Notes under the pieces: generated by a model | The model's database searches: none | Told to the model about the DNA's origin: nothing | What the model saw: the letters and a program-made list of their open reading frames with translations, nothing else | Shown: positions 3,527-53,912 of the stretch, piece by piece | Layout: every line of letters starts with the position of its first letter | Numbering within the stretch: position 1 is the stretch's first letter | UHGV virus genome: UHGV-0287696 | Direction: 5' to 3' (one strand) | Length of the DNA stretch: 64,000 bases | DNA from: a virus | Position numbers and translations under genes: made by a program

Positions 3527-3570
3527 CTTCCCGTTACCTCTATGGGTAACGGGAATACCTTTTATTTATT
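3527..3570 (+). terminator. intrinsic terminator
   Basis: Hairpin cttcccgttacc/ggtaacgggaa followed by ttttatttatt. Confidence 0.6.
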
Positions 3571-3684: not shown

Positions 3685-3713
3685 ATTTCAGATATATATT
3701 ACCTAGGTGAGAG
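3685..3713 (+). promoter_or_regulatory. conserved early-type promoter motif (TCAGATATATATTACCTAGGTGAGAG)
   Basis: One of five near-identical copies in the window, each 40-70 bp upstream of an RBS+ATG; TATATTAC core is what I recall as the phiKZ early promoter consensus. Confidence 0.55.
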
Positions 3714-3758
3714 TTTACGTAATACTCATTTATCGAATACCTAATTAGGAGTTATATC

Positions 3759-3902
3759 ATGATTTCTGTAAAACACAAAAAAGCTATCTTCGGTGTTGTT
3801 ATCGCTGTTGTTCTGGGTTGCCTGTATCTGGACATCGACAAAGGCTACGACACTTGCATCGACAACGGTAATTCCGTTGCACAGTGCACTGGTCGTGGTT
3901 AA
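3759..3902 (+). CDS. small membrane protein (47 aa), likely highly expressed early gene
   Basis: ATG at 3759 with RBS TAGGAG; MISVKHKKAIFGVVIAVVLGCLYLDIDKGYDTCIDNGNSVAQCTGRG; optimal-codon rich; below the 60-aa track cutoff; flanked by promoter motif and terminator. Confidence 0.5.
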   Translation: MISVKHKKAIFGVVIAVVLGCLYLDIDKGYDTCIDNGNSVAQCTGRG

Positions 3903-3907
3903 TGTAT

Positions 3908-3940
3908 AAGGCACCTTCGGGTGCCCTTAATTTTTTTATT
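3908..3940 (+). terminator. intrinsic terminator
   Basis: ggcacc-ttcg-ggtgcc hairpin followed by ttaattttttt. Confidence 0.65.
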
Positions 3941-3956
3941 AATTGGAGCATAAAAG

Positions 3957-4772
3957 ATGATTACCATTAAAGATTATTTTCCGCGTGGACTGAGCAATGA
4001 AAACTTCGTTCCAACTGAAGACATTGCCATCGTAACAGAGTCTAGTGATAAGTCTTTTAAACTCTACTTGAGTACGGCAGCAGGAAAATCCACTCTTATC
4101 CTTCGCGAACCTGAGGTGATAAGCATCTGCTCGTTTGGGGGCGGTGTAGAAGGAACGATTAATTGGTTGAAATCCAGAATGCATCGTTTGCTTATCGTGA
4201 ACACCGATCCTGTGATTCGTTTACAGCAATTGAAATCGTTGAATGAAGTTATCGTCGGATTATTGGAACATGAAACGTTTGGTAATGTTGCGATTGCGGA
4301 AGAGATTAAATCTGTAGAACTAATCGAGTGGAGTGATATCGAATACGAACGTGCTGCGTTATTCGCAATGTACGGTGACGATAATCCTGTTGTGTTTGCA
4401 CAAACATTAGATAACGTTACAGTAACAGCGCGCGTATTGTTTGGCTTACAGCGTGTTGAGTTTGAACTGAAACACGTTTATGTAAGTAATGCTCCAGAGA
4501 TGGTGGAAACGTTGACTCGTGCGTTCGCTTACCCGTTAGACGGAGAATGGGAACAGCAGATTAATGAAGCGTTAGGTGCGATGCTGTTCTTAGCAGGCAC
4601 ACTAAGGAAAGAAGAGAAATTAAAAGGTCGTGTCTATCCAGAATACGATTTTGTTTGTGAAGAATGTGGAGCACAGTATCAAATACGTGTTCCTTTAACC
4701 GGCCTGACAATCCCGAAAGCCAACGTGCAATGTAAGGAATGTGGCCATGTTCAATACGTAGCGACTAAATAA
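3957..4772 (+). CDS. hypothetical protein with C-terminal zinc-ribbon (CxxC...CxxC)
   Basis: 271-aa ORF, RBS GGAGCA upstream; C-terminus FVCEECGAQ...CKECGH. Confidence 0.55.
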   Translation: MITIKDYFPRGLSNENFVPTEDIAIVTESSDKSFKLYLSTAAGKSTLILREPEVISICSFGGGVEGTINWLKSRMHRLLIVNTDPVIRLQQLKSLNEVIVGLLEHETFGNVAIAEEIKSVELIEWSDIEYERAALFAMYGDDNPVVFAQTLDNVTVTARVLFGLQRVEFELKHVYVSNAPEMVETLTRAFAYPLDGEWEQQINEALGAMLFLAGTLRKEEKLKGRVYPEYDFVCEECGAQYQIRVPLTGLTIPKANVQCKECGHVQYVATK

Positions 4773-4776
4773 AAGC

Positions 4777-4822
4777 AACCCCTAATCCTTTTCGGGATTA
4801 GGGGTACACTTTATTTATTTTC
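4777..4822 (+). terminator. intrinsic terminator
   Basis: acccctaatcc-ttttc-gggattaggggt hairpin plus T-rich tract. Confidence 0.6.
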
Positions 4823-4848
4823 GCAAATTCAACATAGGGGATAAGTTC

Positions 4849-4977
4849 ATGAAACATGAACTGTTGTTTCGACGGTTAAACGAGTTGTCCGTAAAACAGC
4901 TCGAATTTCAACGAAGGGTTAGTGAAATAGCGCAACCAACGTTAACACAGCCCAAGAAACACCCAGTCGGTAGTTGA
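4849..4977 (+). CDS. small protein, putative degenerate member 0 of tandem paralog array
   Basis: 42-aa ORF with RBS AGGGG; KQLEFQRRVSEI resembles KQIQFNQRMDEY of the ORF at 5860; rare codons present. Confidence 0.3.
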   Translation: MKHELLFRRLNELSVKQLEFQRRVSEIAQPTLTQPKKHPVGS

Positions 4978-5026
4978 GAGGGGGTAACAACCTAAAGGGG
5001 GAATGCGCCAACACTCCCCATAGGCG

Positions 5027-5082
5027 CTTTATCTTTTCGAAAGAGAAGTTAAAGCAGTAGGGACTGCCTATACAGTCCCTAC
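5027..5082 (+). promoter_or_regulatory. conserved palindromic leader element plus hairpin (array unit 1)
   Basis: cttttcgaaagagaagttaaagca followed by hairpin gtagggactg...cagtccctac; same architecture at 5345 and 5742. Confidence 0.45.
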
Positions 5083-5138
5083 TTGTCGCTATTACCGGTA
5101 CGTAATAGCTTAATCCCCAACTCGTGTGAGGTTTTAAC

Positions 5139-5309
5139 ATGACTAACAACAATACACGTATCTTTACTTCTATCTCAAACAGCTATGCAGAACAAGCGAG
5201 GTTTAATGAACGACTAAGAGAGGTTCAACAACTCGGATTAAATAAAAGGCTTAAAGCCTCTAACAATCCTCGAGTACAGATCTTCACCGAAAGGAGAAGT
5301 AACTACTAA
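5139..5309 (+). CDS. small basic protein, tandem paralog 1 (56 aa)
   Basis: RBS GAGGT; MTNNNTRIFTSISNSYAEQARFNERLREVQQLGLNKRLKASNNPRVQIFTERRSNY; shares QLG(L/M)(N/D)KRLK...QIFTE(R/K)RS with paralog 2. Confidence 0.45.
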   Translation: MTNNNTRIFTSISNSYAEQARFNERLREVQQLGLNKRLKASNNPRVQIFTERRSNY

Positions 5310-5316
5310 ATAAAAT

Positions 5317-5341
5317 AAAGGGGTGCTGTCACACCCCTTTT
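5317..5341 (+). terminator. hairpin (weak terminator) after paralog 1
   Basis: aaaggggtgctgtcacacccctttt. Confidence 0.4.
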
Positions 5342-5344
5342 CTT

Positions 5345-5403
5345 AGCTTTAACTTTTCGAAAAGAGAAGTTAAAGCAGGGTACGCTGGTGCTACAGCGTA
5401 CCC
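5345..5403 (+). promoter_or_regulatory. conserved palindromic leader element plus hairpin (array unit 2)
   Basis: agctttaacttttcgaaaagagaagttaaagca (arms ctttaactt / aagttaaag) followed by hairpin gggtacgctg...cagcgtaccc. Confidence 0.45.
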
Positions 5404-5465
5404 TTTACAGCACCACCACGTTTCCGTAGTGGATTTCTTTAATCACCCTACAAAGAGGGCTTACC

Positions 5466-5639
5466 ATGAACAATGGTTACTACTTTACTGACAAAATGCT
5501 TGCAGAACAGAGTGCAGCAAAGACCAATTTACAGCAACGTATCTACAAGTATAGTCAGCTCGGCATGGATAAACGGTTAAAACCGTCTACCAACCGTTTC
5601 ACGCAGATATTCACCGAAAAGAGGAGTGAACACTACTAA
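5466..5639 (+). CDS. small basic protein, tandem paralog 2 (57 aa)
   Basis: RBS AGAGGG; MNNGYYFTDKMLAEQSAAKTNLQQRIYKYSQLGMDKRLKPSTNRFTQIFTEKRSEHY; differences from paralog 1 are partly synonymous. Confidence 0.45.
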   Translation: MNNGYYFTDKMLAEQSAAKTNLQQRIYKYSQLGMDKRLKPSTNRFTQIFTEKRSEHY

Positions 5640-5712
5640 CAAATAAAGAGGAGGCGTGTCAGCGCCTCCCCTCCTCGTACAGTAACCTGCCGAGATGGTG
5701 GTCGTAGGTATA

Positions 5713-5741
5713 AAAAAGGGTGCTTCACCACCCCTTTTCTT
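5713..5741 (+). terminator. hairpin (weak terminator) after paralog 2
   Basis: aaaaagggtgcttcaccaccccttttc. Confidence 0.4.
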
Positions 5742-5799
5742 AGCTTTAACTTTTCCGAAGAGAAGTTAAAGCAGCAGAGACTGTTCCGCCAGTCTCTGC
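5742..5799 (+). promoter_or_regulatory. conserved palindromic leader element plus hairpin (array unit 3)
   Basis: agctttaacttttccgaagagaagttaaagca followed by hairpin gcagagactg...cagtctctgc. Confidence 0.45.
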
Positions 5800-5830
5800 T
5801 GTACGGTGTCAACACATAAAGTTGTTGACG

Positions 5831-5840
5831 TTTTTACAAC
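5831..5840 (+). promoter_or_regulatory. TTTTTACAAC motif (candidate second promoter class)
   Basis: Exact 10-mer also at 32079 and 37613, each 20-45 bp upstream of a start codon. Confidence 0.25.
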
Positions 5841-5859
5841 ATTACGAAAGGTAATGAAA

Positions 5860-6021
5860 ATGAACGAATATCAAATACAGATGTTCAATACCGCGATGCG
5901 AAATCGTGAGAAACAAATTCAGTTTAACCAACGCATGGACGAATATGTTCGTCTCGGCCTCGTTGCGGCACCGAAAACGGTTAACAACCACAATGTTCAC
6001 CAACCACCTGTAAGGAGATAA
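5860..6021 (+). CDS. small basic protein, tandem paralog 3 (53 aa)
   Basis: ATG at 5860 after GAAAGG; MNEYQIQMFNTAMRNREKQIQFNQRMDEYVRLGLVAAPKTVNNHNVHQPPVRR; track start 5806 is an upstream GTG. Confidence 0.4.
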   Translation: MNEYQIQMFNTAMRNREKQIQFNQRMDEYVRLGLVAAPKTVNNHNVHQPPVRR

Positions 6022-6163
6022 GTTACTAACTAATAAAGGGGGTGTTGCTACCACCCCCTGCTTAGTTCGGTAGTTGTTTTCCATTCATAATTAATAGTCT
6101 TCTGTTTTTTTTTGCTTTCCGAGACGCATAAGGGGTTATAGGGGGAGCCGAAGCTCCCCAGAC

Positions 6164-7726
6164 TCAAAAGAGTTCGTCACCCATGCCGCCGGTAAATACG
6201 TTAATCGACGAGGCTGTTACAGTTTCTTCTTTATCACAATCCCATGGCAAAATGCCAACATCACGGAAAGGTATTACAGTATAATGATAAGCTTCTTTGG
6301 TATCAATAATTGTACGGTGTTTACCGCGTTGTACTTCTAAATAGCTGTGTCCGCTGACGACACGTTTGTTAAAATACATCTCACCGTCAGCTTCGTTGTC
6401 TAAGCTAGAGCAGTTGTCGTAAAGACCACGACCAGGTAAGCTCTTACAGAAACTTGCTGGGTCGAGTGCTTTTAATTTTTTGCCTTCTGGTGAGATTTGG
6501 TGTGGTGCTAAGAGGAAACCACGATTACGTACCACTTGGATGTTTCGCGCGATACGATAAATTTCTTTAATGTCACTACCCGCAATACCGTTACCGTGCC
6601 CTGCTTTGCTGATAGTACCGAAATAGTCTCCGCGTATTCCAGCTACATGATAACCTCGACGTTTTAAATCTAAAATCAAATCATTCAAATAGTGAATTTT
6701 AAAATCGGAGTTTGTGTGTTTTTGGAAAATATACTCCCAACCGTTTGCCCGCATTTTACTACAGAGGTAATCTGACATTTGTGCATTGTGTAGCGCTTTT
6801 TCTTCGTCAGTTGCCGTTTCAGGTGCAACCATTACCGGAGCTGTACCTTCAAAGTGTCCGTAAAGTGCTTGATACGCGTAAGCCAAGTTAACATCTAATT
6901 CGTTTTCTAAACTTAAATCCAGAATAACCGGTTGTAAGTCACCTTTAACATTTGCCATCACCTTTTCTGGGGTGTTGAATACAGGAATGCTAATAGAGAG
7001 CAATAAACTGAATAATGACTTACAGTTAAAAGGAAGAGCAGGCATTAGCCAGAGTTCTTCGGTGATCCCTTTGTTACAACCGAGCATTTGGTTAATTGCT
7101 TTCCAGCCCGTACGTAACCCGTTCCCTGCTGCTTTCTTACTGATAGAGTCGAATACATGTACGAAGGGTGCTTTATTGTCAGTAATCAATTCCCCTACCA
7201 GAGAAGGAATCTTATTATGAGAGCGTTCACTGAACGTGGATAAGGTATCCTTAAGGTCGTTGAGCGCCGTTTGTAAATCAACACGCGTTTCAGTGCCGTT
7301 CAGTGCGCCTAACGTACGACCCAATTTTTGTTTCAGTTGTACGCCTTGAATAGCTTGACGTAACTGAAAGTAGTATTGTGCTACTTGGCGATTAAGATGC
7401 TCGATGCGTGCTTCTGGTTCTTCTGGAATATCATCTTCCAGGAATTTGGTAATCGTATCGTATAGAGGACGTATTTGCGTAGTGGCCAGTTTCAAACGTT
7501 TCATGACGTTTGTGTGGTCGTAAGGCATACCGCCGTCTATGATGGATGTGATGATATCCTTGATTTCGACGAGGGCGGCACGTTCGTCACCTTCTTCTGC
7601 GTAATCAGGAAGCTTAGCCTCTAACAGCACTTTTCTTATGATGTCGTGGTCCTTTTCAGGATCGGTCAGAAGACTTTCAGCGTATAATGTGGCTAAGGCG
7701 GTTATCAACATCATTTTGTTATTCAT
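6164..7726 (-). CDS. hypothetical protein (520 aa)
   Basis: Long - strand ORF; RBS AAGGA upstream of ATG at 7726; no motif recognised. Confidence 0.6.
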   Translation of the reverse strand: MNNKMMLITALATLYAESLLTDPEKDHDIIRKVLLEAKLPDYAEEGDERAALVEIKDIITSIIDGGMPYDHTNVMKRLKLATTQIRPLYDTITKFLEDDIPEEPEARIEHLNRQVAQYYFQLRQAIQGVQLKQKLGRTLGALNGTETRVDLQTALNDLKDTLSTFSERSHNKIPSLVGELITDNKAPFVHVFDSISKKAAGNGLRTGWKAINQMLGCNKGITEELWLMPALPFNCKSLFSLLLSISIPVFNTPEKVMANVKGDLQPVILDLSLENELDVNLAYAYQALYGHFEGTAPVMVAPETATDEEKALHNAQMSDYLCSKMRANGWEYIFQKHTNSDFKIHYLNDLILDLKRRGYHVAGIRGDYFGTISKAGHGNGIAGSDIKEIYRIARNIQVVRNRGFLLAPHQISPEGKKLKALDPASFCKSLPGRGLYDNCSSLDNEADGEMYFNKRVVSGHSYLEVQRGKHRTIIDTKEAYHYTVIPFRDVGILPWDCDKEETVTASSINVFTGGMGDELF

Positions 7727-8276: not shown

Positions 8277-10571
8277 ATGAAAGATACCCGAATCTCTAAT
8301 CTGGAGAAACTCGTACAAGCTGGTAACTCGCTGGTACAAAGCGTCATTAGTAACAACAGTGCTGGCGAAATGTGGAACACCATCGTTGCTGGTGAGTCTG
8401 TACGTAGCAACACGAAAGTTTTTGGTACCCTGCGTGACGATGCTGCACAGCACTACGCAAACGCGTTTGCTGGCGGTAAGAAAATGTCCCACGCTGCGGA
8501 AGTTGCTTCTGCAATGATTCTGGGTGCTGCTGGCCACGGTATGGACCTGCAAGAAAAAGTAGCGCAAGAATACGCTAAGCCAGAATTCCATAGCCGTTTT
8601 AACCTGGACGTTGCGATTCCTGGTTCCCAAGCTGGTAACGGCGACTGGGGCAAAGAGCGTATGGTTGTTGCTCAGGAATACTACACCAACAAAGATTACG
8701 ACAAAAACCTGGGTCTGACCTGGACGCTGAACGTACGTGCTCTGGAAACTCAGTCTCGTTTCGCTGAGACTCTGTTCCCGACCATCACCGTTGACACCAA
8801 CGATGTTGGTATTACCGTACGTACCAAAGTGACCACCGTTTCTCGTGGTGTCATGCACGCGTTACTGACCAAAGACGTTGTTGAAGATCATCGTCGTAAC
8901 CTGCACGAAGCGCTGACCGACCACACCGTTCTCCAGGACGAAGCGATCAACATCGTTCCTTACGTAATGGAAACCGGTGAAAACGCTGAATACTTCGTAA
9001 GCGAAGAACTGGTACCGAACGAATCTGTTCGTCTGGGCCGCGTACCTCCGTACCCGACTAACTACCTGAGCTTTGCTAAAGACACTCTGAACCTGTTCCA
9101 GCTGTCTGCGCATCCGGGTATCGTTCAGGAAGGTTACGACGAAACTGATGAAATCGCACCGGGTTGTGCTCTGGGCAGCCTGCTGATTTCCGTACGTAAA
9201 CCGACCGAAGAAGCGAAAGCAGGTAAATTCATCAAACTGCACGTTCGTGACATGCAGTTCGCAACCTTCCAGCGTCCTGCTGAAGGTGATGGCCGTGAGC
9301 TGGTACTGCAATTCCGTCGTACTGCGTTCTCTCTGAATGCGAAAACCACCGACTGGAAAGGCGAAGCTATTCCGGCACTGAAATCACTGGAACAGAACTC
9401 CTACACCCTGCGTTATGTGATCACCATCAACATGTCTCTGTTCACTACCGGTCAGTTCGGTGGTAAAGTTGACATCGCTGGTCACAAACTGGAAATCGAA
9501 GGTCTGTACGACGCTACTGGTAACAAAGTTGATACCAAATCTGGTACCGGCAAAGTTATCCTGGACGGTCTGAAACTTGAACTGATGGGCTGGCGCTTCG
9601 ATGGTACTCGTACCAACGAAAACCGTCGTACCCAGGGTCTGCTGCTTGACCCAATCTGGGAACAAGAAAACTACAAACTGCAATACGGTTCTCCGATCCT
9701 GACCAAGTCTCCGGTTGGCGTTGAATACGACGATACCGAACGTCTGGACGACCTGATTTCCGCAGTTAACATCCGTAACGAACAGCTGGCTATCACTCAG
9801 ACGCTGTCTTACACCGAAGCGGTACGTAACGCTGCTGCAAGCATGATCACTCCGTGGGACAAACCGGCCATTCGTGGTCTGGGCCGTCACTGGGTTGCTC
9901 CGTGGTTCAAAGAGTCTGACTACAACGTTGATGAAGTTGTACAGTCCCTGGATACCAAAGATGCACTGATCAACGCTCGTCAGGGCCTGGTACAGCGTAT
10001 CGGTAATCAGGTAACTCAGGCTATCCAGGAATCTCGCTTCATTCCTGCGCTGCGTCTGTACACTGCCGATCCGGACATTCTGCCGAAAGTTGTTATTGCA
10101 ACTGACGAACCGACTGCATCTATGCTGCTGCTGGTACAGGGCGACCAACGTCTGCTGGGCGATCGCTACGAATACGAAGTGATCACCACCAACGATGACC
10201 GCTGGCGTATCTACAACGCAGCTGACGGTTCCTGGACTCGTCGTCTGCAATGGTTCCTGAAAGTTCCGACTGCGGACGATGGTTCCTACAACGTGCTGAA
10301 CTGGGGTAACCACTTCTGGTCTCCGATCATGGTTACCAACATCAACATTCAGCGTAACGGTTCTACCTCTAAAGAGCTGGCCGTACAGCCGCGTAACGCG
10401 CACATCTGTCACTGCCCGATCACCGGTCTGATCTGGGTTAAAGGCATCACCAAACTGGTTGAAGAAAAACTGGCTTACAATGTTTCTGTTGAACAGAACG
10501 GTCAGAAACAAACCGAAGGTGGTGTAGCAGGTAACGTTGCTGGCGAAGGCAAAGCTGCTGCTGGTAAGTAA
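8277..10571 (+). CDS. major virion structural protein, most likely major capsid protein (tail sheath not excluded)
   Basis: 764-aa ORF with strongly optimised codons (ctg, cgt, ggt, aaa), strong downstream terminator; size matches the ~750-aa capsid proteins of phiKZ-like phages; no search run. Confidence 0.5.
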   Translation: MKDTRISNLEKLVQAGNSLVQSVISNNSAGEMWNTIVAGESVRSNTKVFGTLRDDAAQHYANAFAGGKKMSHAAEVASAMILGAAGHGMDLQEKVAQEYAKPEFHSRFNLDVAIPGSQAGNGDWGKERMVVAQEYYTNKDYDKNLGLTWTLNVRALETQSRFAETLFPTITVDTNDVGITVRTKVTTVSRGVMHALLTKDVVEDHRRNLHEALTDHTVLQDEAINIVPYVMETGENAEYFVSEELVPNESVRLGRVPPYPTNYLSFAKDTLNLFQLSAHPGIVQEGYDETDEIAPGCALGSLLISVRKPTEEAKAGKFIKLHVRDMQFATFQRPAEGDGRELVLQFRRTAFSLNAKTTDWKGEAIPALKSLEQNSYTLRYVITINMSLFTTGQFGGKVDIAGHKLEIEGLYDATGNKVDTKSGTGKVILDGLKLELMGWRFDGTRTNENRRTQGLLLDPIWEQENYKLQYGSPILTKSPVGVEYDDTERLDDLISAVNIRNEQLAITQTLSYTEAVRNAAASMITPWDKPAIRGLGRHWVAPWFKESDYNVDEVVQSLDTKDALINARQGLVQRIGNQVTQAIQESRFIPALRLYTADPDILPKVVIATDEPTASMLLLVQGDQRLLGDRYEYEVITTNDDRWRIYNAADGSWTRRLQWFLKVPTADDGSYNVLNWGNHFWSPIMVTNINIQRNGSTSKELAVQPRNAHICHCPITGLIWVKGITKLVEEKLAYNVSVEQNGQKQTEGGVAGNVAGEGKAAAGK

Positions 10572-10630: not shown

Positions 10631-10754
10631 CTATTATTTTTTGGATAGATATTATTAAAGGGAGACGGCCAGTTGGTTTTAAAGGAGTATGTATGGAAAA
10701 AATACAGTTTAAACTAAAGATATGTGTCATCATTAAAATTTAGCTTGGGTTCCC

Positions 10755-30870: not shown

Positions 30871-30909
30871 AGGTACCACCGTTGGGTGGTACCTATATTT
30901 TATTTTTTC
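30871..30909 (+). terminator. intrinsic terminator
   Basis: aggtaccacc-gttg-ggtggtacct followed by atattttatttttt. Confidence 0.7.
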
Positions 30910-30937
30910 TCAGATATATTTTACTTAGGTGAGAGTT
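30909..30937 (+). promoter_or_regulatory. conserved early-type promoter motif (variant CTCAGATATATTTTACTTAGGTGAGAG)
   Basis: Copy 2 of the motif, immediately after a terminator and ~50 bp upstream of the HTH gene. Confidence 0.5.
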
Positions 30938-50024: not shown

Positions 50025-50069
50025 GGTAGTAGGGGCTAAGCCCCTACTACCTTTCTTTTTTTATTTTTT
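50025..50069 (+). terminator. intrinsic terminator
   Basis: ggtagtaggggc-taa-gcccctactacc followed by a ~18-nt T-rich tract. Confidence 0.75.
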
Positions 50070-50098
50070 CTCAGATATATATTACCTAGAGGAGAGCG
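50070..50098 (+). promoter_or_regulatory. conserved early-type promoter motif (CTCAGATATATATTACCTAGAGGAGAG)
   Basis: Copy 4, immediately after a terminator and 46 bp upstream of ATG 50144. Confidence 0.55.
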
Positions 50099-53862: not shown

Positions 53863-53873
53863 TAAAAATAATT

Positions 53874-53912
53874 TCAGATATATATTACTTAGGTGAGAGT
53901 ACAAAAGCTCTC
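53874..53912 (+). promoter_or_regulatory. conserved early-type promoter motif with downstream palindrome (GTGAGAGTACAAAAGCTCTCAC)
   Basis: TTCAGATATATATTACTTAGGTGAGAG; copy 5, 44 bp upstream of ATG 53944. Confidence 0.55.

Follow-up and report, generated by a model that had tools for sequence, protein, structure and literature searches.

Near the start of a 64,000-nt stretch of viral DNA (UHGV virus genome UHGV-0287696; the whole stretch is hereafter called the window), small open reading frames (ORFs) stand in tandem, and we read them, with a probability of about one in two, as a hyperplastic array of autonomous small-gene cassettes encoding proteins of 53-61 aa, each of which would carry its own portable module for stopping and restarting transcription and stabilising the mRNA. 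The module consists of a terminator hairpin (T1), an AT-rich palindrome (P) and a GC-rich leader hairpin (H2). What can be followed directly in the sequences is the anatomy of the array, the coding status of its ORFs, the pairing and covariation of the hairpins, the exclusivity of P and its fixed distance from the ATG, and the plasticity of the array.

The array lies at the 3′ end of a conserved early-type operon, before a convergent helicase gene. The cassettes of ORFs 2-4 share one layout, running from a terminator hairpin through P, the abutting H2 and a further hairpin (H3) to a Shine-Dalgarno (SD) sequence, the ORF and stops in three frames. The features of the array are the following (cassette types are lettered A to E; handles such as L005 denote genomes used for comparison):

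4809-4827, + strand: left half of an ancestral P, CTTTATTTATTTTCGCAAA, before ORF1; the right arm and H2 are lost, and ORF1 has no leader hairpins
4849-4977, + strand: ORF1, cassette type A, 42 aa, a frameshifted remnant
4998-5019, + strand: hairpin after ORF1, GGGGAATG CGCCAA CACTCCCC
5026-5055, + strand: P of cassette B, GCTTTATCTTTTC GAAA GAGAAGTTAAAGC
5056-5083, + strand: H2 of cassette B, AGTAGGGACTG CCTATA CAGTCCCTACT
5088-5109, + strand: H3 of cassette B, GCTATTAC CGGTAC GTAATAGC
5139-5309, + strand: ORF2, cassette type B, 56 aa, with the SD GAGG upstream; the identical protein is found on about 90 contigs
5317-5340, + strand: T1 after ORF2, AAAGGGGTG CTGTCA CACCCCTTT, then TCTTAG
5346-5376, + strand: P of cassette C, GCTTTAACTTTTC GAAAA GAGAAGTTAAAGC
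5377-5404, + strand: H2 of cassette C, AGGGTACGCTG GTGCTA CAGCGTACCCT
5413-5432, + strand: H3 of cassette C, CCACCACG TTTC CGTAGTGG, with 7/8 pairs
5466-5639, + strand: ORF3, cassette type C, 57 aa
5647-5672, + strand: hairpin after ORF3, AGAGGAGGCG TGTCAG CGCCTCCCCT
5677-5707, + strand: 3′ remnant of a type E gene, its last 31 nt, the same as those of the E gene in L005
5713-5738, + strand: T1 of the E remnant, AAAAAGGGTG CTTCAC CACCCCTTTT
5743-5772, + strand: P of cassette D, GCTTTAACTTTTC CGAA GAGAAGTTAAAGC
5773-5800, + strand: H2 of cassette D, AGCAGAGACTG TTCCGC CAGTCTCTGCT
5803-5834, + strand: H3 of cassette D, ACGGTGTCAACA..TGTTGACGTTTT
5840-5856, + strand: small SD-holding hairpin of cassette D, CATTAC GAAAG GTAATG
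5860-6021, + strand: ORF4, cassette type D, 53 aa; the SD is best spaced for the ATG at 5860
6037-6059, + strand: final terminator hairpin, AGGGGGTG TTGCTAC CACCCCCT

ORFs 2-4 are genuine genes and ORF1 is a decayed remnant. An earlier, sequence-only reading of this DNA had proposed four paralogous small genes at 4849, 5139, 5466 and 5860 with a common core. All four ORFs are present (42, 56, 57 and 53 aa), all four have an SD, and the core (K/E)Q..F.QR..E stays coherent in alignments of 13 and then 41 family members; as genes, however, only three of the four hold up. Among alleles from 34 arrays, the ratio of nonsynonymous to synonymous polymorphism (pN/pS) is 0.17 for type B (ORF2), 0.18 for type C (ORF3), 0.18 for type E and 0.37 for type D (ORF4), the last value resting on few differences, and segregating sites are concentrated at codon position 3 (20/32 in type B, 17/30 in type C, and also 12/17). 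ORF1, on the other hand, carries a 14-nt deletion between CCCAA repeats that shifts its frame relative to the 52-aa orthologue in L007 (which ends ..QLIVERRSN); the 40-aa alleles of type A have three segregating sites, all at codon position 2, several truncated forms exist, and the type, left with half of P, is decaying. Intact type E genes, encoding a 61-aa protein (MPDLRKEV...), are found in L005, L116 and others. We rejected the minus-strand ORFs at 4919-5152, 5636-5815 and 5842-6084, since the codon-position bias tracks the frames of the + strand.

P is a palindrome of 30-31 nt with 13-bp arms and a loop of 4-5 nt. It had been described as having 9-bp arms and as preceding units 1-3; the arms prove longer, with one T.G pair fixed in 27/27 leaders (unit 2 also has one T.T), and the three copies stand before ORFs 2, 3 and 4. 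Before ORF1 there is no more than the left half of an older form, the segment at 4809-4827 matching the left arm and loop of the palindrome of SPN3US and Machina (TTTATTTTC-GCAAA-GAAAATAAAAG). In 98/99 intact ORFs of types B-E, P lies 82-91 nt before the ORF, the exception being a type D gene in L007 that has no P. Shuffled sequence gave no match. The 64-kb window has P only at the array, as do four relative contigs of 150-225 kb, and SPN3US and a Huxley-like phage have it once per genome; in a scan through IMG/VR with the SPN3US-type palindrome, the relevant matches were three true loci, most of the others being AT-rich and due to chance. Among the 27 distinct leaders, 8/13 pairs of P are invariant and 2 have changed on both sides, while the abutting H2 drifts. 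Its sequence is nearly the same in Machinavirus and Seoulvirus, and its polarity is constant, with a T-rich 5′ arm and an A-rich 3′ arm; the reverse was never seen. P, in short, is held in sequence, whereas the adjoining H2 is held only in pairing.

With the early motif of the phage itself (ATATATATTAC plus CTAGGTGAGAG, corresponding to the conserved AT-rich core that chimallivirus early promoters have about 10 nt upstream of the start) P has no more than TTTC in common. No sigma-70-like site overlaps P (the region has 6, against 6.2 expected), and the best hand-scored sigma-70 hexamers within it reach 3/6 and 3/6, without the -7 T. A hairpin promoter of the N4 type was rejected, because C.A mismatches would fall on its template strand and because the polymerase differs in type. 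P, held in sequence, exclusive to one gene family and unlike both the early motif and a sigma-70 promoter, must have a sequence-specific reader. Candidates are a form of the polymerase, a regulator, a nuclease or a small protein, acting via DNA or RNA.

H2 (11 bp, 6-nt loop) adjoins P directly and ends 56, 62 and 59 nt before the three ATGs, in good agreement with the spacing of about 56-62 nt noted earlier. Across 27 distinct window-clade sequences of P plus H2, standard pairs fill 98.3% of cells, compared with 41-56% when the partner is slid, and in H2, where pairing reaches 99% of cells, 7/11 pairs have changed on both sides, a covariation that extends across genera. Compensated variants of H2 include AAGGTACGCTG/CAGCGTACCTT and, in L007, AAGGTTCGCTG/CAGCGAACCTT in cassette C, and AGTAGAGACTG/CAGTCTCTACT in cassette D of L004. 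The three leaders have fold z-scores of -6.65, -7.10 and -7.26; folds and pairing counts thus agree with the proposal of a structured, conserved leader in which a fixed palindrome and covarying hairpins precede real small genes. Searches with the Rfam covariance models gave matches that all lie far below threshold (best 23.9 bits against a gathering score of 42). Predicted terminator-like hairpins with T-tracts number 19 in the region against 3.2 expected, and T1 after ORF2 looks bidirectional from its sequence, with an A-tract before it and a T-tract after. The GGGGTG...CACCCC hairpin that was said to end each unit ends some of them; the hairpin after ORF1 is GGGGAATG..CACTCCCC, and that after ORF3 is GAGGAGGCG..CGCCTCC and is followed by the type E remnant with a GGGTG/CACCCC hairpin of its own. 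When the cassette C leader is folded, GGUGCUGU (5322-5329), made up of the 5′ arm and loop of T1, pairs over a long range with ACAGCACC (5407-5414, directly past H2), so that P and H2 lie inside; this pairing, an alternative to T1 as a hairpin, may be a coincidence.

Using the helicase gene as an anchor, we compared the array locus across genomes. Phages with a helicase 97-100% identical to that of the window show 14 architectures in 40 complete arrays, including ABC, AEC, AC, BE, BEC, EC, BC, D alone, CD, ED, ABD and BD, the longest being the A-B-C-(E remnant)-D of the window. Between the window and L004 the flanks are about 0.4% different, with the differences crowded into 4500-6000. Deletion at microhomologies accounts for some junctions: TTCAACA is the point at which, in L004, the ORF1 leader runs into the middle of ORF2, and most of E was lost from the window through CTCG/TTCG. 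Others lie in the repeated 3′ ends, in terminators or inside P, where the chimeras AAC/GAT and ATC/GTT occur alongside the matched forms AAC/GTT and ATC/GAT. The Salmonella phage 1252 (L144, PP695294.1 17980-18126) has one hybrid gene, in which the N-terminal part of SPN3US gene 1 is joined to the ..GGEILLNKS of gene 2, to judge from its sequence by unequal crossover between the two paralogues. The paralogues of the array are only 30-36% identical and form separate types A-E. Since these types are separately selected and are gained, lost and reordered between near-identical phages, the array reflects diversification and shuffling, not amplification, and the suggestion of a dosage-amplified family has to be given up.

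The 3′ ends of the cassettes (5299-5316, 5630-5646 and 6019-6036) hold overlapping stops in three frames (TAACTACTAAATAA, TACTAACAAATAA and TAAGTTACTAACTAATAA) just before the terminator. The motif AAGGAGA..ACTAA at these ends is kept even where the reading frame differs (ORF4), and the ends are also recombination junctions.

In the reading that we favour, T1 would end or attenuate incoming transcription, with the T-rich 5′ arm of P serving as its U-tract. P would be a family-specific control site that restarts or licenses expression of the cassette, either as a DNA promoter or operator or as a protein-recognised RNA hairpin, so that a cassette would work wherever it stands in the array. The short mRNA of a cassette would begin at or close to H2, a protective stem-loop, and would be closed by the next T1 as its 3′ hairpin. 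The array would be plastic because the module is repeated: homologous exchange, at P/T1 or at the conserved 3′ ends, and deletion at microhomologies would duplicate, delete and reorder the cassettes. The argument for autonomy is an indirect one: wherever an ORF stands, and whatever the order, it is still under purifying selection, although genes far down the array should be starved by as many as four or five successive terminator-like hairpins if read-through alone supplied their transcript.

Several points weigh against the cassette reading. A second SPN3US gene and the type D gene of L007 have no P, and P is therefore not needed before every ORF. P is unlike both the early promoter motif of the phage and a sigma-70 promoter, and a promoter confined to a single locus is unusual. 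The literature that we searched holds no transcript maps for this phage or for SPN3US-like phages, and no reports on SPN3US gp71/gp72. In the chimallivirus 201phi2-1, however, 132 terminators were mapped, 15 of them bidirectional, and 24/67 mapped promoters have no assignable motif (PMC11512511), so orphan promoters and dense terminators are normal in these phages. The reverse strand of the leaders folds almost equally well, and fold energies do not discriminate between the strands. Distinct mismatch events in P plus H2 number 9 G.T against 3 A.C, which is suggestive only (one-sided p ~0.07). The arms of P change together, which fits a hairpin or a dimer site and would not be expected of a plain asymmetric promoter. 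Finally, arm exchange, a mutational process, could keep the arms complementary without selection on RNA.

The way in which P evolves bears on the main rival, according to which there is no internal promoter. A single attenuated transcript would read through the array from about 3692, and P would be a + strand RNA hairpin for processing or insulation: RNase III, RNase E or a phage factor would cleave at P, T1 would protect the upstream 3′ end and H2 the downstream 5′ end. The early region of T7 is known to be processed by RNase III. The symmetric evolution of P and the G.T bias favour this rival, which we consider possible, if somewhat doubtful. Changes found in both arms are an A-T to T-A swap and a C-G to T-A change, insertions have occurred on both arms (+1 bp in pEa_SNUABM_29, +2 bp in L014), and the stem holds while the loop varies (GAAA, GAAAA, CGAA, CAAA, GCAAA, GGGAG, ATTGC). 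The fixed T.G pair, of which a variant P′ has two, would be tolerated only with folding of the + strand; the strand asymmetry of the mismatch events does point the same way but is not significant. Also in favour of this rival are the early-type promoter conserved at the operon head in all genera examined and the lack of resemblance between P and any promoter of this phage. On the other hand, a purely structural hairpin should drift like H2, which P does not, 13 bp are short for RNase III, and the serial hairpins would leave distal cassettes starved, yet their ORFs are selected wherever they stand.

The possibility of arm exchange arises from the loops. Between near-identical genomes, hairpin loops are exactly reverse-complemented, and nearly every hairpin of the array is affected. 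The loop of the upstream terminator, T(up), at 4789-4794 reads TTTTCG in the window and CGAAAA in sister genomes; L005 has inverted H2 loops in cassette B (CCTATA/TATAGG, 5067-5072) and cassette D (TTCCGC/GCGGAA, 5784-5789), and L004 has inverted loops in T1 (CTGTCA/TGACAG, 5326-5331) and in H2 of cassette C (GTGCTA/TAGCAC, 5388-5393). In all, five loop inversions within 1.1 kb separate the window from L004 and L005, and three loops have flipped between genomes with flanks about 0.4% different. H2 alone, followed through 54 arrays, has eight loop pairs in both orientations, and the Machina group (L137-L141) has one inverted pair (CTGTAA/TTACAG). No flip was seen in three further hairpins of this 10-kb region (3528-3555, 3910-3925 and 6142-6159). 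Inversions of this frequency indicate that arm-to-arm exchange or template switching often operates at hairpins. Since such exchange can copy mutations between arms, the maintenance of pairing does not by itself prove selection on RNA: the compensatory stem changes on which the sequence-only reading had relied are real, as the H2 counts show, but the inversions offer a possible non-selective cause for them.

Kelchner and Wendel are said to have described, in 1996, 'flip-flop' inversions of hairpin loops in chloroplast non-coding DNA. In both cases small inversions of the exact loop between inverted-repeat arms recur among very close relatives; here they affect the terminator and leader hairpins of a phage genome, at high density. 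The array is thus a clear phage example of rapid flips, which matters when compensatory stem changes are taken as proof of selection on RNA.

Arm exchange also enters an account in which P has no function of its own. P would consist of the T-tracts of two face-to-face terminators, T1 on the + strand and H2 on the - strand, that insulate the early operon from the helicase gene, and its complementarity would be kept by loop-flipping, arm-to-arm template switching. We think this improbable. It does fit the constant position of P between two GC hairpins, the T-rich 5′ and A-rich 3′ arms, the exchange that the loop inversions reveal, and a terminator scan that called H2 plus CTTTAACTT a minus-strand terminator three times. 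However, paralogues and genera alike keep the non-T/A positions GC..AAC / GTT..GC, the closing C-G and the loop region, far beyond the needs of a U-tract; on the minus strand the window clade has only a poor U-tract (GCUUUAACUUCUC), and that of SPN3US stands 3 nt from the stem; and each cassette already has a bidirectional-looking T1. The fixed distance to the ATG and the restriction of P to one gene family would be left unexplained.

Turning to the proteins, AlphaFold2 run on ORF2 with the 41-sequence alignment gives a helix over residues 2-34 (predicted local distance difference test, pLDDT, 79-90) followed by a low-confidence basic tail, and the small proteins are accordingly predicted to consist of one long helix plus a basic tail. 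SPN3US-type proteins match phrog_18219 at 1e-27 to 4e-13. Against the PHROGs profiles, ORFs 2-4 of the window had no match, the best being a type A orthologue with E = 0.11, and sequence searches of Pfam and the PDB found no relative of the small proteins. Comparison of the window-clade and SPN3US-clade profiles in hhalign, however, gave 86% probability (E 4.7e-6) over the helix. This profile-profile match, the synteny and the common leader architecture support homology of the window paralogues with the phrog_18219 family. A joint profile retrieves both clades, 67 proteins in total, all on 220-250 kb jumbo-phage contigs or fragments of these; an exhaustive profile search of 1.84 billion representatives yielded, besides a single spurious match, just 12 family members, and no remote homologues outside the clade. 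The phrog_18219 proteins of SPN3US (RefSeq ACQ60_gp194 and gp195, 48 aa) resemble those of the window in locus, in the upstream T-P-H2 architecture and in the helix core (K)Q..F.QR(V/L).E. They differ in their invariant C-terminal KGLGG(D/E)I(I/L)FNK(R/K), in place of which the window proteins have QIFTE(R/K)RS (types B and C) or unrelated tails (D and E), and arrays of the window clade hold up to five types compared with one or two.

A family gene is present at the corresponding locus in Seoulvirus and Machinavirus phages. The layout there runs from a terminator through TTTATTTTC-GCAAA-GAAAATAAAAG, a GC hairpin, an SD, a 47-49-aa gene and a terminator to the helicase, in SPN3US, STsAS, phage 1252, pEa_SNUABM_29, Machina, pEa_SNUABM_43/6/10, pSal-SNUABM-04 and two IMG/VR phages, and the stems of the GC hairpin differ (GCTCTCTCC, GGTTACTCCCC, GTCCTCTCC or GTTCTCCC). 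At this locus phiEaH2 and Asesino have neither the gene nor P. The locus is real, non-random and conserved across at least three jumbo-phage lineages.

The joint occurrence of gene and palindrome raises the question of whether P is the cognate site of the small proteins themselves, a DNA operator or an RNA hairpin through which each cassette would be autoregulated. Precedents are the Aca proteins, which repress anti-CRISPR promoters, and lambda N, which binds the boxB hairpin in its own leader. P and the family occur together in Seoulvirus, Machinavirus and the window clade and nowhere else, both being absent from the phiEaH2/Asesino locus; P is constrained in sequence and at a fixed distance from the ATG; and the proteins are basic, with a single long helix that could dimerise. 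The GAAAA loop is also a loop of lambda boxB, which is a resemblance only. Nevertheless, we hold autoregulation to be unlikely, since all paralogues stand behind the same P although they have only about 10 conserved helix positions in common and the C-terminal motif is missing from types D and E. Neither Pfam nor PHROGs nor the PDB gave a match to a DNA- or RNA-binding domain, the helix, unlike N peptides, is not rich in arginine, and antitermination would be needless downstream because the next gene is convergent. We give an equally small chance to the more far-reaching idea that P and the small proteins are a cis/trans pair invented by the clade, in which a helix-plus-tail protein of about 50 aa would recognise a sequence-specific AU-rich hairpin or palindromic operator and a paralogue would license or repress its own cassette, or that P is a hairpin-type promoter for a form of the multisubunit RNA polymerase; phages whose transcription does not depend on the host would then, in either case, have a kind of gene control that is new, and the loop flip-flop could in addition act as a switch resembling phase variation. 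As to function, our guess is that the small proteins are accessory early proteins that bind a host or phage partner. Being clade-restricted, under purifying selection and rapidly reassorted, they have the profile of host-interaction or anti-defence genes and are reasonable candidates for functional screens.

The neighbouring features are:

3686-3714, + strand: early-type (virion RNA polymerase-like) promoter motif, TTTCAGATATATATTACCTAGGTGAGAG, heading the operon that ends in the array
3759-3902, + strand: gene for a 47-aa membrane protein (phrog_8574)
3957-4772, + strand: gene for a 271-aa protein with a C-terminal zinc ribbon, the operon gene upstream of the array
4778-4805, + strand: T(up), terminator hairpin of the upstream genes, stem 11-12 bp, loop TTTTCG
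6164-7726, - strand: divergent DnaB-like replicative helicase gene, convergent with the array and bounding it (PF20307 match, 2e-125)

The window encodes a PhiKZ-type major capsid protein at 8277-10571, and its helicase is 85% identical to that of Erwinia phage phiEaH2, within a range of 83-85% for the helicases of phiEaH2, Asesino and Salmonella phage SPN3US. Because of these two proteins we assign the window, by sequence, to a nucleus-forming jumbo phage of enterobacteria, of the SPN3US/Machina/phiEaH2-like kind. Near and distant nucleotide searches of the INPHARED phages with the array region found no match and hence no close relative at the DNA level, and tblastn with ORF2 found none either. 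Genomes of about 220-227 kb with a helicase 97-100% identical to that of the window are present, by contrast, in IMG/VR and in gut metagenomes. Close relatives of about 220-225 kb are complete contigs in many NCBI assemblies of E. coli and Shigella isolates (L108-L110, L113, L114, L163-L172), which suggests carriage of the phage with cultured hosts, as a carrier state or as contamination.

The motif at 3686-3714 is probably an early promoter of the virion RNA polymerase, by analogy with phiKZ-like phages (PMC7598289), and the position of the array downstream of it agrees with the earlier placement in the early region. It is repeated in the window at 30908-30936, 50069-50097 and 53872-53900 (given as single positions, the four copies are at 3692, 30914, 50075 and 53878), with variants near 10645 and 36221. 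Its form is a T-rich tract followed by TCAGATATATATTAC(C/T)TAGGTGAGAG, also written TTTCAGATATATATTAC(C/T)TAGGTGAGAG, usually just 3′ of a terminator hairpin, and it heads the corresponding operon in SPN3US, phiEaH2, Asesino and the Huxley-like L011, L014 and L007. A second class of motif, ..GAGATAGATATTATCT.., is found downstream of the capsid gene.

The non-coding stretch that separates the array from the helicase stop, at about 6095-6163 (T9-G..CGAGACGCATAA..GGGGAGCCGAAGCTCCCC), has conserved counterparts in SPN3US, phiEaH2 and Machina-group phages. Its hairpin, read on the helicase strand, has no U-tract after it and so does not make an ordinary terminator. Over 20 kb, the GC skew followed the direction of transcription alone and had no origin-like switch at the array locus. 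Elsewhere in the window, the 11-mers GCGATTGCGGA (120, 4290, 11836 and 43148, always in frame as Ala-Ile-Ala-Glu/Asp) and GATTACCATTA (3959, 20272, 57855 and 59480) each have four copies inside unrelated coding regions with unshared flanks, a count above the expectation of a uniform model.

Several known systems resemble the array in part. Like integron cassettes, the small genes form an array with imperfect palindromes between them whose set and order differ among close relatives, and P of the window clade has AAC...GTT at symmetric positions, reminiscent of RYYYAAC/GTTRRRY. An attC site, however, spans about 57-141 nt, has R″/L″-L′/R′ boxes and extrahelical bases, lies 3′ of a promoterless ORF and is used by a tyrosine integrase. 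We rejected this identity because P has 30-31 nt, lacks AAC/GTT in SPN3US and Machina and lies 5′ of the ORF at a fixed distance, after a terminator, and because rearrangement has joined sequences at microhomologies or at the conserved 3′ ends instead of at a G/TT site; no integrase was seen in the window, and none was searched for outside it. With lambda nutL/boxB-N the array shares small early genes behind a GAAA(A)-loop hairpin, followed by a larger hairpin in the 5′ leader. The boxB of lambda has a GC stem of about 5 bp and a GNRA-like pentaloop. A nut/N system was rejected, since there is no boxA and no arginine-rich motif (the helix has few arginines), the stem is AU-rich and 13 bp long, and the next gene is convergent. 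As in the T7 early region, hairpins between early cistrons could give protected mRNA ends, but the array has no long stem (about 20 bp) of the RNase III type. Type I toxins, which are small hydrophobic membrane peptides, were rejected because Q, N, R and K abound in the proteins of the array, which are hydrophilic and predicted to form one soluble helix with a basic tail; a CRISPR-like array was rejected because the 'spacers' of 321-396 bp are coding.

The closest analogue in architecture and evolutionary behaviour, although the locus is not a member of the class, is the promoter-early stem-loop (PeSL) cassette, a composite terminator/promoter motif that flanks ORFan genes of T4-type phages and drives their modular shuffling (Arbiol et al. 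2010, PMC2839356; Comeau et al. 2014, PMC4122927). In both, short composite motifs with a stem-loop, at the array a predicted terminator, stand directly upstream of small ORFans in hyperplastic regions and would insulate the genes, and recombination between the repeated motifs explains insertions, deletions and replacements among very close relatives; the 82-91 nt between P and the small ORFs, the 14 architectures in 40 arrays and the concentration of differences at 4500-6000 are in line with this. PeSLs contain a consensus sigma-70 early promoter (-35/-10 with an AT-rich upstream region), can give excised mini-circles when neighbouring motifs recombine, and occur about 50 times per genome before unrelated genes (PMC2839356; PMC4122927), whereas P has no sigma-70 promoter and serves one locus and one paralogous family, an exact palindrome being followed by a covarying hairpin. 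A sigma-70 PeSL was rejected on these grounds, the copies not being dispersed in the window or in its 220-225 kb relatives, and by analogy with phiKZ the phage would not use the host polymerase.

The locus is evidence that PeSL-like shuffling of ORFan cassettes is not limited to the T4-type phages that use sigma-70. Nucleus-forming jumbo phages use their own polymerases, and the locus offers a compact test bed for them, in which a fixed palindrome stands beside a covarying hairpin in three copies within the window; natural variants have already been sampled by the dozen, and the one- or two-cassette form is available in the cultivable phages SPN3US and Machina. The shuffling of small accessory genes by regulatory cassettes is of a known kind; what sets the locus apart from the systems above is a palindrome that is fixed in sequence and exclusive to one gene family.

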